IMG/VR virus record: IMGVR_UViG_2648501165_000010
Source: a virus
Taxonomy: Duplodnaviria; Heunggongvirae; Uroviricota; Caudoviricetes
Length of the DNA: 7,808 bases
Reading direction: 5' to 3' (one strand)
The notes below the pieces were generated by a model. The model did not search any database, was not told the DNA's origin, and saw only the letters and a program-made list of their open reading frames with translations. Made by a program: the position numbers and the translations under genes. Positions 814-7,770 of the stretch are shown here, one piece after another. How positions within the stretch are numbered: position 1 is the stretch's first letter; the number at the start of each line of letters is the position of its first letter.

Positions 814-890
814 TAGCGCGTTGTACTGGAGTCGAACCAGTGACCGATTGCTTAGAAGGCAATTGCTCTGTCCTGCTGAGCTAACAACGC
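814..890 (-). tRNA. tRNA-Arg, anticodon UCU (reads AGA/AGG), phage argO-like; 3' CCA not encoded (GCTA)
   Basis: Perfect cloverleaf on the reverse complement: acceptor GCGTTGT/ACAACGC, D-stem GCTC/GAGC, anticodon stem ATTGC/GCAAT with loop CTTCTAA, T-arm ACTGG-TTCGACT-CCAGT, discriminator G. The three bases after the discriminator are CTA. Confidence 0.7.
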
Positions 891-903
891 AGAATACCGA
901 TAA

Positions 904-979
904 TGGACCACCACCGGGGACTCGAACCTCGCACACTCAACTTAAAGGGTTGACGCTCTTTCCTGATGGCTAGTGGCGG
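904..979 (-). tRNA. Atypical tRNA-like gene with encoded CCA; anticodon loop CCTTTAA (UUU with C33), weak D-arm; possibly degenerate
   Basis: Acceptor CCGCCAC/GTGGTGG pairs with one G-U, T-loop TTCGAGT, anticodon stem TCAAC/GTTGA, discriminator T then CCA. The D-stem does not pair canonically and one T-stem pair is A-C. Confidence 0.35.
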
Positions 980-2249: not shown

Positions 2250-2519
2250 TCATGCTTTCCACTTCAGGACACCCGAATTTCTCGCGTGCATTAAAAAACG
2301 AATCAGCAACAACAGCTGGCTGCCGTGTTTTTCTTCAAAATCTTTTACCCCGGCGTGCAGTTCGTTATGACATTTACGGCACAGCGGAATAACAAACAAA
2401 TCATCAGCCTTTGTTCCCATCCCTCCCAGTCCATGACCAATGATGTGATGCGGATCATCTGCCTGATTACCGCACGTCATGCATTTCTGCGTTTTTACCC
2501 AGCGCGTGTATACAGGCAT
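2250..2519 (-). CDS. Small Cys/His zinc-ribbon (HNH-like) protein, paralogous to the C-terminal module of the 2603-3505 gene; YbcO/DUF1364-like by recall
   Basis: MPVYTRWVKTQKCMTCGNQADDPHHIIGHGLGGMGTKADDLFVIPLCRKCHNELHAG... The open frame continues upstream to the gap at 2592 with homology to the ydfU-like internal region (VVSIAVDPESP versus VVSITVDPESP), so the true 5' end may lie in the gap. Confidence 0.5.
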   Translation of the reverse strand: MPVYTRWVKTQKCMTCGNQADDPHHIIGHGLGGMGTKADDLFVIPLCRKCHNELHAGVKDFEEKHGSQLLLLIRFLMHARNSGVLKWKA

Positions 2520-2592
2520 CTCTTCCCGTTGTGGTTTCTGGCGCTGGAGATACTGAGCCGGTGACTCCGGATCAACGGCAATGCTGACCACC

Positions 2593-2602
2593 NNNNNNNN
2601 NN
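2593..2602. other. Assembly gap (10 N) of unknown true length, between two paralogous zinc modules
   Basis: Run of n characters. The reading frame of the conserved domain changes across the gap. Confidence 0.95.
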
Positions 2603-3505
2603 TGCTTTTGTTCCCATTCCGCCCTGCCCGTGACCAATCAGATGATGCGGATCGTCGGCTGGCATACCGCAGCAAGCACACGGCTGTGTCTTAACCCAAC
2701 GTGTGTATTTCTCCTTAACCCAGCGGCGACGTTTAGGCAGCTTCATGAAAGATTCCGGAGACTCTGGATCAACGGTGATGCTTACCACCGTCTTTTCCTG
2801 TGGTGATTTTTGTTGCTGGTGGGCGTAAGGCAACGGTGCAAGATTTTTTGTGCGTTGTTTCAATATGCTGGTGGCGGTCTGCTCTCCCGGTACGATGTCG
2901 CTTTCGCGGTACACCGAGCAGATTTTTTCCGCTGGTAATCCCAGCGAACGACGCGATACAGCCTCAGGTAGTGCATCCACCACCTGATTGCAGACCGCCC
3001 ACCAGGATAATTCAGCCAAAGATAATTCCCGCTCCTGCGTACCGCTTATTGCGTGACGGATGACGTCAATCACCCATGCTGTCAGATTTTGTTGAGCAAG
3101 CAGCTCCAGTGATTCCGATGTCTGGTCACGCAGTTGGTTGTCGCAGTGCCAGCACAACACCATTGCGCCGGTACCATAACGGTGAATGACTGTTTCAGTG
3201 TGATGGTAATCGCCATTAGGCCACTGGCAGGATGTAACATGACGTAATAGCCAGTCGGACAATGCGCCAACGCCGCCAGCAGCACGAATCACCCGTTCGT
3301 TACTAAAAAACGGCAGCAATGTTTTGTCTTCCGCCAGCGGCTGGCGAACGGCAGGAACGACTCCGGATGGCAGATTACGCATGCTTTTTGGTTCCGGTTC
3401 CACCAGCACTCGAGGATTATGAAATATCTGTATGGATTCACGGCCCGGCTTAAGGACCACCAGCCCAAGCTCAGGCACCAGAACAGGTCTAAGTAATACC
3501 CGCAC
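2603..3505 (-). CDS. ydfU: YdfU-like DUF968 prophage protein, 3' end truncated by the gap
   Basis: Long open frame ending in ...WVKTQPCACCGMPADDPHHLIGHGQGGMGTKA at the gap. A GTG start at 3503-3505 with GGAGG just upstream would give about the 349-aa size I recall for K-12 YdfU. Alternative starts are GTG 3544 (track) and ATG 3385. Confidence 0.6.
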
Positions 3506-3506
3506 G

Positions 3507-3785
3507 TTACCTCCAGATCCGTTGCTGGAAAGTGCGGGACGCACGTGGTGGGCGTTCGGAATAAGGCAGCCTGACAGAGATTATCCAGTGCCGATAGTCG
3601 AGACTGAGAGCTTTCTTAACCTCGAACCCGCGCCTGCGGTAAGAATGAATCAGCCATTCGGCCTGTTCTGCAGTGCATGGAGGGTGCTGGAACCATTCAG
3701 ACTTGAATGCGTGAGAATACCGCCCGTGCGTGCAGGCAAGAACGGGCGAATTATCAGAATTGTAATATTTTGCGTTGCGTGCCAT
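3507..3785 (-). CDS. Hypothetical prophage protein (92 aa), no family recognised
   Basis: ATG with GGAG upstream; TAA stop one nucleotide before the proposed ydfU-like GTG; same orientation as its neighbours. Confidence 0.55.
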   Translation of the reverse strand: MARNAKYYNSDNSPVLACTHGRYSHAFKSEWFQHPPCTAEQAEWLIHSYRRRGFEVKKALSLDYRHWIISVRLPYSERPPRASRTFQQRIWR

Positions 3786-3851
3786 CGGTTTTCTCCGGTG
3801 GCACGGTGTTACTCAGCGGGAGTTCAGCCCCGCGCAAGATTGTAGATGAGT

Positions 3852-4103
3852 TTATTCTCCTGAAAAAGCAGAAAAGCCAGCTTTTATTCCGATCTCTTTC
3901 AATGCCTGTAATGAAGTGACAAACTCACCTTCGCGCAAGATAAATCCGTCCGTGACCCGAGCATCCACAAAATTAATTAACGCAGCCCCATTCTTTCGCA
4001 AACACATAATGCGGTAATGACTAACAAGATTTCCATTTTCAACGCACACAGCATAGAGGCCATCTTCACAAAAAATTTTACGCAGTTCTTCGATGTTCAT
4101 CAT
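3852..4103 (-). CDS. rem: Rem-like small prophage protein (83 aa)
   Basis: 83-aa ORF with GGAAGGA SD, at the position and size of K-12 Qin rem (between ydfU and hokD) as I recall it. Confidence 0.65.
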   Translation of the reverse strand: MMNIEELRKIFCEDGLYAVCVENGNLVSHYRIMCLRKNGAALINFVDARVTDGFILREGEFVTSLQALKEIGIKAGFSAFSGE

Positions 4104-4181
4104 CAGAATCCTTCCGGATAATTAGCTCTCCCCTTTAAGGGACCATCCCTCTTATCCCTGCGCGCTACTTAAGTATTTTTG

Positions 4182-4211
4182 ATTCTATTCCGGCGCCGTC
4201 CGGAACTTCAA
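4182..4211 (-). promoter_or_regulatory. Candidate rem promoter with a palindromic spacer (possible operator)
   Basis: Minus strand TTGAAG, 18-nt spacer, TAGAAT. The spacer 4188-4205 is the inverted repeat TTCCGG-N6-CCGGAA. Confidence 0.35.
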
Positions 4212-4225
4212 ACGCGTTGAAAATA

Positions 4226-4249
4226 AAAACAAAAACCCGCCGAAGCGGG
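4226..4249 (-). terminator. Intrinsic terminator ending the relB-relE-hokD transcript
   Basis: Minus strand CCCGC-TTCG-GCGGG followed by TTTTTGTTTTT, about 70 nt after the hokD stop. Confidence 0.7.
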
Positions 4250-4319
4250 TTAAGTGCGGGTGCGTTGAGGATGCCTGACACATCAGAGGTGGCGAGGGAT
4301 TTCTCCCCCGCCGGGTCTC

Positions 4320-4475
4320 TTACTCCTCAGGTTCGTAAGCTGTGAAGACAGCGACCTCCGTCTGGCCGGTTCGGATTCGTACCTCGCAGAGGTCTTTCCT
4401 CGTTACCAGTGCCGTCACAATGACGGTTAAACAGATGACGATCAGAGCGATTAATATCGCCTTTTGCTGCTTCAT
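4320..4475 (-). CDS. hokD: Hok-family membrane toxin HokD (RelF), 51 aa
   Basis: Translation MKQQKAILIALIVICLTVIVTALVTRKDLCEVRIRTGQTEVAVFTAYEPEE with AGGAGAAG SD. The six-frame track misses it because it lists only the antisense ORF. Confidence 0.9.
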   Translation of the reverse strand: MKQQKAILIALIVICLTVIVTALVTRKDLCEVRIRTGQTEVAVFTAYEPEE

Positions 4476-4546
4476 AGCCTGCTTCTCCTGTCAACGCAAA
4501 GCAGAAGTGTCACCTTCGGTGCGAAACAGAGATGTCATGCTTTGGT

Positions 4547-4834
4547 TCAGAGAATGCGTTTGACCGCCTCGCTATATACTTCCGAGCGTTCTCTTTTCCC
4601 AACAGAAATCACGAAAACGACAACTTTCTCGTCTATAACCTGGTATACAAGGCGATAGCCTGAAGACCGGAGCTTAATCTTGTAACAATCAGGCATACCA
4701 CGGAGCTTGTTTGCTTCAATCCGGGGTGACTCAAGTACTTCAACCAGCTTCTTTTTCAACTGTTCACGTACCGTCGAGCCCAGCTTTCGCCATTCCTTTA
4801 GTGCCCGCTCGTCAAAATCCAGAAAATACGCCAT
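4547..4834 (-). CDS. relE: mRNA interferase toxin RelE (95 aa)
   Basis: MAYFLDFDERALKEWRKLG...VISVGKRERSEVYSEAVKRIL is essentially the K-12 RelE sequence by recall. The start overlaps the relB stop. Confidence 0.95.
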   Translation of the reverse strand: MAYFLDFDERALKEWRKLGSTVREQLKKKLVEVLESPRIEANKLRGMPDCYKIKLRSSGYRLVYQVIDEKVVVFVISVGKRERSEVYSEAVKRIL

Positions 4835-5073
4835 CAGAGTTCATCCAGCGTCACACGTACTGGCTTAGGATTACGAAGCCGTTCTTTCACTATCTCCACA
4901 AGTTCAGCATCTTCATCACTCAGGAGTGTCTGTTTGAACGGCAAGCGTTCATTGTCAGCGATATACTCGAGCATGAGACGAAGCGCTTCAGAAGGAGTTA
5001 CACCCATTTTTTCAAGCGCGGCGTAAGAACGCGCTTTAAGTTCATCGTCAATACGCAGGTTAATGCTACCCAT
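4834..5073 (-). CDS. relB: Antitoxin RelB (79 aa)
   Basis: MGSINLRIDDELKARSYA...RNPKPVRVTLDEL matches K-12 RelB by recall. Confidence 0.95.
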   Translation of the reverse strand: MGSINLRIDDELKARSYAALEKMGVTPSEALRLMLEYIADNERLPFKQTLLSDEDAELVEIVKERLRNPKPVRVTLDEL

Positions 5074-5084
5074 GTCTTACACCT

Positions 5085-5137
5085 CTTGTAATTACAAATG
5101 TCATTACAAGTATCGCACTACAACATGCTTAGGGCAA
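5085..5137 (-). promoter_or_regulatory. relBE promoter and relO-type palindromic operator
   Basis: Minus strand TTGCCC, 17-nt spacer, GATACT, followed by the near-palindrome CTTGTAATGACATTTGTAATTACAAG (5085-5110), AGAGGTG SD, and the relB ATG. Confidence 0.7.
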
Positions 5138-5403
5138 GTCACGAAGGAAGTCAGAAAGTAGTCGTAAGAACGGTGATCACTGTCCGCTTTGTGCCAGGAG
5201 CAGCCATTGCTAAGTCCATCCTGTATTGTGCAGGTCAGCTCGTTTTTAAAGAGTCCGGCCATCATCTTACTGGTACAGACACCATATACTTTGTGACGGT
5301 CAGGCTACATATGCACAACTCAACTTATTCATCTATTTTTTGCTTTAGCATGTCAGTGTTGCTTTCTCGTCGGCGGGTGAGCGGTGACCTGACCTGTCGA
5401 TAA
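5098..5403 (+). CDS. ydfV: YdfV-like ORF (101 aa), doubtful as a real gene
   Basis: Position and length match the ydfV ORF annotated in K-12 Qin as I recall it. The ATG lies inside the relO palindrome and has no SD. Confidence 0.3.
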   Translation: MSLQVSHYNMLRASHEGSQKVVVRTVITVRFVPGAAIAKSILYCAGQLVFKESGHHLTGTDTIYFVTVRLHMHNSTYSSIFCFSMSVLLSRRRVSGDLTCR

Positions 5404-5555
5404 AGGAACGTAACACGTTTTATGCAACACCCGCATGCGGCAGAAAATTATTGCCGAACGTTTACCCCTGTCAACAAGCTTTACTTTCTGAGGCGCGCCA
5501 GCCCGCGAGGAAAACAATCTGAACATCAAACAATTAATGACACAAGAAATACGAT

Positions 5556-5582
5556 TAAAGATTTTTTTGTGCATGCCGATAG
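5556..5582 (+). promoter_or_regulatory. Sigma-28 (FliA) class-3 flagellar promoter for flxA
   Basis: TAAAGATT, 11-nt spacer, GCCGATAG against the consensus TAAAGTTT-N11-GCCGATAA, 24 nt upstream of the flxA ATG. Confidence 0.7.
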
Positions 5583-5605
5583 TGCTTTTTTAAAAGGAGA
5601 AATCT

Positions 5606-5938
5606 ATGTCTGTCACAATTCAGGGAAATACCTCAACCGTTATTTCAAACAACTCCGCCCCGGAAGGAACATCAGAAATAGCCAAAATCACAAGACAAAT
5701 TCAGGTGCTGACTGAAAAGCTTGGGAAAATCTCATCGGAAGAGGGGATGACGACACAGCAGAAAAAAGAAATGGCTGCATTGGTACAGAAGCAAATTGAA
5801 AGCCTCTGGGCTCAACTGGAGCAGTTGTTAAGGCAGCAGGCAGAGAAAAAGAATGAAGACGCGACAGTTCAGCCTGATAAAAAAGAAGAGAAAAAAGACG
5901 ATACAAATACCGCTGGCACCATTGATATTTACGTCTAA
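5606..5938 (+). CDS. flxA: FlxA (110 aa), FliA-regulated prophage protein
   Basis: MSVTIQGNTSTVISNNSAPEG...TAGTIDIYV with AAGGAG SD matches K-12 FlxA by recall. The middle is coiled-coil-like and the tail is charged (KKEEKKDD). Confidence 0.9.
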   Translation: MSVTIQGNTSTVISNNSAPEGTSEIAKITRQIQVLTEKLGKISSEEGMTTQQKKEMAALVQKQIESLWAQLEQLLRQQAEKKNEDATVQPDKKEEKKDDTNTAGTIDIYV

Positions 5939-5952
5939 GTGACAGCCGTATT

Positions 5953-5977
5953 GTGGCCCTCATCGGGCCACTTTTCG
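5953..5977 (+). terminator. Intrinsic terminator after flxA
   Basis: GTGGCCC-TCATC-GGGCCAC followed by TTTTCG. Confidence 0.6.
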
Positions 5978-6254
5978 CCATCAGCCTTTTCTTTAAAGAC
6001 ATATTATCTTTGTATCATTTCTGATAGTTAACATTACAAGATATAAGTAATGGACGCACTCCCAATTAGTCTATTTAAATCGCCACGAGTTTAACTGACA
6101 ACCCATGATCAATTATGAATTGCAACTATTTCTGTAGTCACTTTTGTGGGGACAGTCCACAAAACTGCCAACTTCCGCTTCTTGCTCTTAGCGGACATTA
6201 GCATAGGCTATTTACCATAACGCCTCATTACGCGCACCGCCCAGACTGACTCAG

Positions 6255-6320
6255 CGCGTTTCTGGCATATCCCCGGTAAAACAAGTAACAAACCACCCGA
6301 AAATGAACACCAGAAACGCG
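6255..6320. repeat. 11-bp perfect inverted repeat (CGCGTTTCTGG / CCAGAAACGCG) separated by 44 bp, about 55 bp beyond the transposase stop
   Basis: Direct reading of 6255-6265 against 6310-6320. Confidence 0.6.
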
Positions 6321-6329
6321 ACTTAAGAA

Positions 6330-7770
6330 TCTACCCTATGAATGGATATGCACTCAACCGAATCGATCTTGGTTTCAATCTTTTTTATCGGGATCAGGCT
6401 TCTTTTTAGGTAACTTCGGGGGCTTAACTTGCTGATGACTTTGCGTTCGGCGCGTAAGCCAGGGATGGTCAGCTTTAGGTTTAACATAGTATTTTGAGCG
6501 TAAATCAATACGGGCATTATCCACTCGTTCATGGACACTCTTTTCATCATCCAGTGGTATAGGCTCCGGGCCATCAACATACTTTTCCCAGCCCGGCGCT
6601 TTCCCGTCATACAGAACGTTAATTTCACCGTCAAAGTTCTCGCATACAGTAACAACCGAATGCCTAAGTCGATATCCCCGGCCCTCACTGCGTACCTGAA
6701 ACGCACTGCTTTTGTACTGGAAAGTGAGATTTTTAGACAGAACGCGCTTCGCCTGTAGGCTGAAGATATAACCCAGTTCCTCTTCAGAATGGTGCACATC
6801 AAGATGAGCATTATCAGTAGTACGAGGCGACGTAGCGAACCGGTTGTTATAGGCTTCAATAAAGGTCGGCAACCATGCATTTGCTGTTTCAATATCACTG
6901 ATATTCTGAAGCCGCATTTCTTTGACCAGCCTGTCCTGTAGTGTCTGATTGGCGCGCTCTACCCGCCCTTTTGCCTGCGGGCTGTTGGCATGGATTGGCT
7001 CGATGCCCAGTGTCTTTATCGCACGAGTGAACTGGGTCAGCTCACCTTCCCGCTCTGGGTTATTTACCCTGAATATACTGTGTCTATCAGAGTAGAGAGC
7101 GAGCGGTACGCCATGATCATTAAGGTAACCCCGGAGGGTTTCCATGTAAGCCCGGGTTGTTTCAGCAGGCACAAAACGCAACGCCATCAACGCACTGGTG
7201 GCATCATCAATGAAAACGATCAGTGTACATCTGGGGCCTCGATTTTCAAACCAGTCATGAGGTGAGCCATCAATCTGGATCAGTTCACCGTAAGATGGTC
7301 GTCGCATGCGGCGTTGATATATACGGGCAATTTTACGACGGCGTTCACGCCATAACCCCTCTTCTATCATCCACTTTCTGAGAGTTTCAACGGATAAAGA
7401 TAAACCGTGTATCTCGCGCAATTTTTCGCACGCAAACGTAGGTCCAAAATCAGCGTAACGGCCTTTGAGGAGTGAAATTACTGTTGCTCTGAATTCAGTA
7501 GAAAAGGAATTATTAGGACGCTTTCCACGTCGGTGGGAAACCAGACCAGAAGGCCCTTCATTTCTATACCGTTGCACCAGACGTTTAACCTGCCGAATAG
7601 AAATGCCAATGCGTGCCGCAGCTTGTTCCTGAATAATCTGAAGTCGGTGGAGTTCCTTATGACTCATCGTAACAGTCTCTTTGATCATGAAAAATCCCCC
7701 AGAGAATTGTCTGGGGACATTTTAGAATGGTTCAAAGGGGACATTACAGCTTGGTGTTAACAATAGCCTG
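6330..7770 (-). mobile_element. IS-like element carrying the transposase; ends not resolved
   Basis: Transposase gene present, but no terminal inverted repeats could be matched between the left and right flanks inside the window. Confidence 0.25.
6375..7688 (-). CDS. DDE-type transposase/integrase (437 aa), N-terminal HTH plus rve-like core; IS481/ISNCY-like, family unresolved
   Basis: N-terminus IGISIRQVKRLVQRY looks like a helix-turn-helix. Candidate DDE residues are in QIDGSPHDW, LYSDRHSIF and SPQAKGRVERANQTL. The SD GGGGGA lies inside a 6-bp hairpin (CCCCAG/CTGGGG, 7697-7716). Confidence 0.85.
   Translation of the reverse strand: MIKETVTMSHKELHRLQIIQEQAAARIGISIRQVKRLVQRYRNEGPSGLVSHRRGKRPNNSFSTEFRATVISLLKGRYADFGPTFACEKLREIHGLSLSVETLRKWMIEEGLWRERRRKIARIYQRRMRRPSYGELIQIDGSPHDWFENRGPRCTLIVFIDDATSALMALRFVPAETTRAYMETLRGYLNDHGVPLALYSDRHSIFRVNNPEREGELTQFTRAIKTLGIEPIHANSPQAKGRVERANQTLQDRLVKEMRLQNISDIETANAWLPTFIEAYNNRFATSPRTTDNAHLDVHHSEEELGYIFSLQAKRVLSKNLTFQYKSSAFQVRSEGRGYRLRHSVVTVCENFDGEINVLYDGKAPGWEKYVDGPEPIPLDDEKSVHERVDNARIDLRSKYYVKPKADHPWLTRRTQSHQQVKPPKLPKKKPDPDKKD

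Follow-up and report, generated by a model that had tools for sequence, protein, structure and literature searches.

Organization of the rem locus

How is the expression of rem, a small gene located behind the relBE-hokD genes, controlled, and does the inverted repeat in the spacer of its putative promoter take part in this control? We addressed these questions in a window of 7,808 nucleotides (the whole stretch of DNA that was analysed) from the Caudoviricetes record IMGVR_UViG_2648501165_000010. The Rem protein encoded in this window is 100% identical to Rem of E. coli MG1655 (b1561). According to the part of Ragunathan et al. (2023, PMC10448788) on which we draw, Rem lifts the DicA repression of the dicBF promoter 165-fold and is classed as an antirepressor of the Gifsy GfoA type. 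The same part of that paper states that the condition inducing Rem is unknown, and reports no induction of the Rem/DicA target promoter by mitomycin C and no need for recA. In these experiments, rem was driven from foreign promoters, and its native promoter is not described in the sections concerned. Rem is thus a DicA antirepressor, and the first-pass annotation of this DNA, in which the function of rem was taken to be uncharacterised, was mistaken in this respect. The function of rem is already known. No family for Rem was found in our local copies of Pfam and NCBIfam, and a literature search on rem expression alongside the neighbouring genes gave nothing useful.

Based on the ORF list, the relBE-hokD and rem genes are all located on the minus strand. 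The rem region is nin-like, and rem is co-oriented there with the replication genes and Q. Past the hokD terminator, we localized on the minus strand exactly the arrangement that the first-pass annotation had claimed, i.e., TTGAAG-N18-TAGAAT with TTCCGG-N6-CCGGAA as its spacer. The features of the region, in the order relB to rem, are the following:

5073-4834, minus strand: relB (ORF list)
4834-4547, minus strand: relE (ORF list)
4475-4320, minus strand: hokD, with its stop at 4320 (ORF list)
4234-4251, minus strand: stem-loop AACCCGC-UUCG-GCGGGUU of the hokD terminator (terminator scan, fold)
4220-4233, minus strand: T tract of the terminator, which extends to about 4220 (sequence)
4206-4211, minus strand: -35 hexamer TTGAAG (promoter scan), with 0 of 6 columns variable in 67 Qin-type haplotypes
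4188-4205, minus strand: 18-nt spacer TTCCGG-ACGGCG-CCGGAA, i.e., TTCCGGACGGCGCCGGAA, with perfect 6-nt arms and a 6-nt loop
4182-4187, minus strand: -10 hexamer TAGAAT, found at the same position in 322 of 323 loci with the leader motif
4174-4176, minus strand: predicted transcript start, 6-8 nt past the -10 hexamer, placed by hexamer geometry
4104-4173, minus strand: conserved 5' leader (alignments A1 and A3)
4165-4143, minus strand: leader block GCGCGCAGGGATAAGAGGGATGG, preceded in the leader by CTTAAGTA (alignments)
within the full rem leader, minus strand: segment GCGCGCAGGGA
4146-4135, minus strand: short upstream ORF ATG GTC CCT TAA in the leader
4142-4138 paired with 4133-4129, minus strand: leader hairpin
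4115-4109, minus strand: Shine-Dalgarno sequence GGAAGGA
3852-4103, minus strand: rem, encoding 83 aa, with its ATG at 4103 and a match to phrog_340 (ORF list)

By coordinate transfer, the MG1655 equivalent of the predicted start corresponds to positions 1,644,973-1,644,975.

A terminator separates rem from relBE-hokD

The hairpin of the hokD terminator has a folding energy of -11.8 kcal/mol (z = -3.9), and its stem is followed by UUUGUUUUUAUUUU in the terminator scan. Of 15 representative loci spanning the main upstream types, 13 have a CCCGCTTCGGCGGG hairpin with a T tract ahead of the promoter, and in four of these 13 the preceding gene is not hok. In hok modules without rem, the similarity to the window stops at about position 4225, just past the terminator. 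The T-tract region (4233-4218) has one variable column out of 16 among the 67 haplotypes; it sits about 10-25 nt upstream of the -35 hexamer and could double as an A/T-rich UP-like element. Since rem is preceded by a strong terminator and, very probably, by a promoter of its own, it would be an independent unit rather than a gene reached by read-through from relBE-hokD. The independence proposed for rem in the first-pass annotation is very probable, and the terminator accompanies the unit across its relatives. This unit is composed of terminator, promoter, leader and small gene.

A weak match to isrK, an Rfam family representing a Salmonella prophage sRNA, was observed at 4230-4311 on the minus strand, over the 3' end of hok and the terminator; this match is below threshold (24.9 bits versus a gathering score of 50, E = 0.035).

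The putative promoter of rem is conserved among relatives with unrelated upstream sequences

Viewed as a single site, the rem promoter is an ordinary one. TTGAAG (4/6) and TAGAAT (5/6), separated by 18 nt, have the hexamers and spacing of a sigma-70 promoter, with 9 of 12 matching positions and a spacer that is long at 18 nt. Our promoter scan returned 3 sites in 2 kb versus 1.8 expected, and the site is unremarkable by itself. The comparison with relatives, in contrast, placed the promoter far beyond chance, and not the palindrome. Using the 23-nt leader block GCGCGCAGGGAnAAGAnGGATGG as the search key, we gathered 323 loci with the leader motif from annotated phages, E. coli genomes, species representatives, IMG/VR and metagenomes; this sample is rich in defective prophages and redundant isolates, and its counts refer to sequences, not to independent events.

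These loci have at least six families of upstream sequence with unrelated spacers, and nearly all of them present TTGnnn 16 or 18 nt before TAGAAT, namely TTGAAG-18 (the Qin type), TTGATT-16, TTGAGG-16, TTGATA-16, TTGCCT-16 and TTGCTT-16; a small Qin-type variant has TTAACT at 18 nt in place of TTGnnn. Among the 67 Qin-type haplotypes, none of the 19 columns formed by the -35 hexamer, the -10 hexamer and the next 7 nt is variable, versus 10 of the 18 columns of the spacer (Fisher p = 1.3e-4). In one natural recombinant (L110), a foreign upstream half meets the Qin-type downstream half exactly at TAGAAT. Constant hexamers at a constant spacing, together with a drifting spacer, are the signature of a working sigma-70 promoter. 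The elements and their conservation are observed directly, and from them we infer promoter activity: rem very probably possesses a sigma-70 promoter of its own. The earlier claim to this effect is well supported by the invariance of the -10 hexamer in 322 of 323 loci and by the -35 hexamer kept in at least six upstream sequences. As such, the promoter is an ordinary one; both the antirepressor gene behind it and the type of layout are already known.

Another promoter-like sequence, TTTTCA-16-TACAAT (3839-3866, minus strand), overlaps the end of rem and precedes a 92-aa ORF (3785-3507), for which no Pfam family was found.

The palindrome in the spacer is probably incidental

In the window, the spacer at 4188-4205 has dyad symmetry. 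Perfect inverted repeats with 6-nt arms and loops of 0-8 nt occur 23 times in the window versus about 15 times in shuffles, and the palindrome pattern with up to two mismatches was present in 53 of 200 shuffles. The prior chance of a perfect dyad inside one pre-chosen 18-nt spacer is about 0.7%, a figure that applies to a site chosen beforehand, and this one was picked after the fact. Among 274 loci with an 18-nt spacer, the two arms match at 6/6 positions in 10 loci and at 5/6 in 217, and the weaker matches are distributed as 4/6 in 31, 3/6 in 12 and 2/6 in 4. In 5,426 complete E. coli genomes, the window allele (exact 70 nt) was present in 549 records, mostly of Shiga-toxin strains, and the K-12 allele TTCTGG..CCGGAA was 3.6 times commoner than the perfect one, with 1,984 records. 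The imperfect spacer TTCTGGACGGTGCCGGAA is that of the K-12 Qin prophage and of two functional phages, HannyBb and mEp460_ev081.

The variation among the 67 Qin-type haplotypes affects four of the six positions of the left arm, five of the six of the loop and one of the six of the right arm, and in the main set of these haplotypes no change in the left arm is accompanied by a compensating one. A commoner variant, TTTTGG..CCAGAA, has both arms altered and still matches at 5/6 positions. Arms conserved or co-varying, as expected of a dyad kept under selection, were not found in the relatives, and the other promoter families have unrelated spacers without the dyad. No second TTCCGG-N6-CCGGAA site was found in the window. 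The complete PPompW genome contains five matches with up to two mismatches versus 1.9 expected, none of them in a promoter; the best, which is the only one with a single mismatch, is located in an unannotated stretch that is not promoter-like. No regulator gene adjoining rem was found either. As the perfect palindrome is a minority allele whose left arm and loop vary freely, it is probably not a repressor site. The designation of this sequence as a likely repressor site in the first-pass annotation is therefore left without support, with a perfect dyad in only 10 of 274 loci and uncompensated changes at four of six left-arm positions; similarly, the search proposed there for a prophage repressor recognizing TTCCGG sites led to no adjoining regulator gene and to no convincing second site.

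A real operator, to which a dimeric repressor of the host or the prophage would bind between the -35 and -10 hexamers and block the RNA polymerase, would account for a perfect 6+6 dyad placed exactly within the spacer of the window, against a prior of about 0.7% for a given spacer. The right arm CCGGAA is nearly invariant in the Qin family, most alleles retain 5/6 arm matches, and Rem must stay silent in lysogens; moreover, defective prophages are abundant among the loci and the selection on an operator could be relaxed in them. Nevertheless, the perfect dyad is the minority allele, some alleles are down to 2-3/6 matches, and the uncompensated variation of the left arm and the loop occurs beside hexamers that never vary. 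Five other promoter families combine the same leader with unrelated spacers, and neither a convincing second site in the window or the complete PPompW genome nor an adjoining regulator gene accompanies the dyad. We consider such an operator improbable, and the dyad does not appear to be under selection, although the invariant CCGGAA beside the -10 hexamer may belong to an asymmetric site. Still less probable, to the point that we give it very little credence, is that the palindrome acts as an RNA hairpin in read-through transcripts, as a second signal for pausing, termination or processing. The hairpin is stable, with a predicted energy of -10.1 kcal/mol for the window allele and -7.9 kcal/mol for the K-12 allele (z about -2.3), the C to U change in K-12 retains a G-U pair, which would explain the tolerance of U-G, and the palindrome forms the tip of a longer T-tract/A-tract stem in the read-through fold. 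However, no U tract follows, UAGAAUCAAAAAUA comes next, and the terminator scan does not report the hairpin; the stem is broken, even with G-U pairs allowed, in the TTTTAG, TTATTG..GTCGGAA and ..GACGGAA alleles, it is missing from the other promoter families, and little RNA would be expected past the upstream terminator. Rather than an operator or a hairpin, the palindrome is probably an accident of one allele, in a spacer that is otherwise free of constraint.

In the family that includes L094, L106 and L122 (TTGATA/TTGATT-16-TAGAAT), an 8-nt spacer palindrome, GGTATACC, was observed in one minority allele. The other alleles of this family have imperfect versions, and this second spacer palindrome is not maintained.

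Mosaic structure of the window

Six of the seven differences between the window and K-12 Qin are located in 4195-4455, i.e., clustered over hokD and the rem promoter, and two spacer positions match the PPompW-type allele; the perfect dyad was probably acquired by a short recombination patch. On a larger scale, the window is a mosaic. The side of Q, rusA and the tRNA genes (1100-2592) is 99.9% PPompW-type, and the side from ydfU to flxA (2603-6559) is 99.8% identical to K-12 Qin, with the seven differences mentioned. The junction lies inside ydfU, at a run masked as N. At 2250-3544, a partly masked stretch, overlapping ORFs of 143 and 349 aa both contain the motif YTRWVKTQ..C..C....DDPHH.IGHG.GGMGTKA, and this duplicated motif would fit a recombination junction within ydfU, a DUF968 gene. 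Several short runs masked as N are also present at 400-1050, and the corresponding place in PPompW is occupied by tRNA-Met, -Lys and -Arg. The other features observed in the window are the following:

816-890, minus strand: tRNA-Arg(tct), downstream of Q
904-979, minus strand: tRNA-Lys(ttt), downstream of Q
6375-7688, minus strand: 437-aa ORF with helix-turn-helix and integrase-core (rve_3) domains, an insertion-sequence transposase

The transposase ORF occupies the position of ydfW, ydfX and dicC in K-12 Qin, and the similarity to K-12 ends at 6559.

A conserved leader precedes different small genes

From about the predicted start onward, all families have CTTAAGTA-GCGCGCAGGGAnAAGAnGGATGG in common, and in alignment A3 the leader is better conserved than the rem coding sequence. 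The stem of the C/G hairpin is constant and carries at least 12 different loops of 3-8 nt; the Shine-Dalgarno region is common to most families. The ATG of the upstream ORF (4146-4144) is invariant, and the ORF always begins M-x-P. In the Qin type it reads MVP-stop. Its length elsewhere is 3-22 codons; its end often coincides with or overlaps the main start codon, and in some loci the ORF continues in frame into Rem.

The same promoter and leader precede a long Rem (83-87 aa), a short Rem (57-58 aa) and an unrelated 55-aa protein. Long and short Rem belong to phrog_340 and have the same N-terminus, and the 55-aa protein belongs to phrog_34610. The loci with these three kinds of product include L096, L125, L141 and L181. 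This arrangement suggests that one regulatory cassette is shared and that its cargo can be exchanged. Separately, long Rem matches phrog_340 in two stretches and may contain an internal duplication.

Being common to all relatives, the -10 hexamer and the leader would be better candidates for control than the palindrome. Rfam gave no match in 4104-4181, even at E values up to 1. Compensatory base changes were not found in the leader, where no RNAalifold pair was changed on both sides, and the single-sequence fold of the leader was no better than that of shuffles (z = -0.26). Thus, an RNA-level mechanism in the leader is only suggested.

TAGAATC (4181-4187) is complementary to GATTCTG (4104-4110), located before the rem start codon; both sequences are conserved, and a different leader type retains the pairing through G-U pairs. 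In a read-through RNA, this pairing could mask the start region.

We also considered CsrA, which would repress by binding to the leader. GGA motifs occur several times there, and AGGGAUGG is similar to the consensus of CsrA, but the peak table of E. coli CsrA CLIP-seq contains no rem peak, a result that is not decisive if rem is untranscribed under those conditions. CsrA was not retained as a candidate.

Comparison with known antirepressor systems

In the immI region of P22, the ant promoter has the Arc operator between its -35 and -10 elements and the Mnt operator at its start site. An antirepressor promoter with a dyad inside its spacer is the architecture that the first-pass annotation proposed for rem. 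Unlike P22, however, the rem loci have no arc- or mnt-like ribbon-helix-helix gene beside rem, and the rem dyad is not conserved. RelB, encoded nearby, is a ribbon-helix-helix protein, and nothing ties it to the dyad site. We also considered autoregulation through DicA. The dicA-dicC operators are TTGTTAG-N6-CTAACAA-type dyads and nothing similar is present in 4104-4260, and this candidate was rejected.

Closer parallels are found in the Gifsy-1, -2 and -3 operons dinI-gfoA/gftA/gfhA-irsA, which are controlled by LexA (Lemire et al. 2011, PMC3121763). Antirepressor modules under SOS (LexA) control also include 186 tum and N15 antC. In these operons, a terminator-like hairpin is followed by a promoter with a LexA box that drives dinI, the antirepressor gene and irsA (PMC3121763). 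As in Gifsy, the product of rem is a small antirepressor, and its target is a DicA-like repressor that is short and non-cleavable. The gene lies between the replication genes and Q, a long way from the immunity region, and is preceded by a terminator-like hairpin and its own -35/-10 promoter. Additionally, irsA follows rem in Rac-type relatives, as it follows gfoA. In contrast to Gifsy, the rem loci lack dinI and a LexA box, and the rem relatives have a common leader instead of an operator in the promoter; in the part of PMC10448788 cited above, the Rem/DicA target promoter is not inducible by mitomycin C. LexA control was rejected for rem: in the 15 representative loci, both strands were free of CTG-N10-CAG between about 80 nt upstream and about 100 nt downstream of the -10 hexamer.

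With respect to the Rem/DicA system of K-12 Qin, the Rem sequence is identical and 2603-6559 of the window is 99.8% identical to Qin, and the difference concerns the spacer dyad, imperfect in K-12 and perfect in the window allele.

Proposed model for rem expression

Based on these results, we consider it likely that 4251-4104 (minus strand) constitutes a self-contained expression cassette for Rem, in which the palindrome is incidental and silencing acts through the -10 hexamer, the start site and the leader. In this model, the strong intrinsic terminator would halt the transcription of relBE-hokD and, in a whole phage, that of the early rightward operon. The sigma-70 promoter TTGAAG-18 nt-TAGAAT would then initiate a new transcript near position 4175, consisting of the conserved leader of about 70 nt and rem. 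Finally, Rem would inactivate DicA and prophage early genes, such as dicBF, would be turned on. The silencing of rem would most likely act on the -10 hexamer, the start site and the leader, with its M-x-P upstream ORF and C/G hairpin.

The opposite reading is that there is no working promoter. Antiterminated read-through from the early rightward promoter would then be the sole source of rem expression, with TAGAATC and the leader conserved as RNA elements of the long transcript. The location of rem in a nin-like region, co-oriented with the replication genes and Q, is in agreement with this reading, as are the modest score of the promoter as a single site and the RNAalifold pairing of TAGAATC, which includes the -10 hexamer, with GATTCTG (4110-4104), two conserved sequences whose pairing is retained through G-U pairs in the different leader type. 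However, the minimum-energy fold of the read-through RNA does not contain the proposed pairing and the leader has no compensatory changes. Furthermore, upstream sequences unrelated to one another repeatedly have TTGnnn at a distance of 16 or 18 nt, as predicted by a promoter and not by an RNA role, a strong terminator is nearly always retained directly upstream, and the homologous Gifsy modules are demonstrably promoter-driven (PMC3121763). Expression of rem exclusively by read-through is, in our opinion, unlikely, and the self-contained cassette remains the preferred reading.

A more specific version, which we put forward tentatively and regard as somewhat doubtful, is that the -10 hexamer and CTTAAGTA-GCGCGCAGGGAnAAGAnGGATGG, the M-x-P ORF and the hairpin with its free loop form a sensor module, through which a host factor or a translation-coupled switch would control interchangeable antirepressors. 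If this were true, the upstream spacer, palindrome included, would be irrelevant, and many E. coli lambdoid prophages, including those of Shiga-toxin strains, would have a common, SOS-independent induction pathway.

Implications for prophage induction

By disabling DicA, Rem turns on toxic prophage genes. In K-12 these are dicB and dicF, and in intact phages they comprise entire early operons. In the one paper on Rem (PMC10448788), the cited part gives its inducer as unknown and distinct from the SOS response. A promoter behind a terminator and ahead of a gene is ordinary by itself. Nevertheless, fixing the start of rem and discounting the palindrome in favour of the -10 hexamer and the leader would narrow the search for the inducing signal to about 100 nt, a region common to roughly half of the sequenced E. 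coli genomes. The conserved leader is a modestly interesting lead towards the inducer of Rem.
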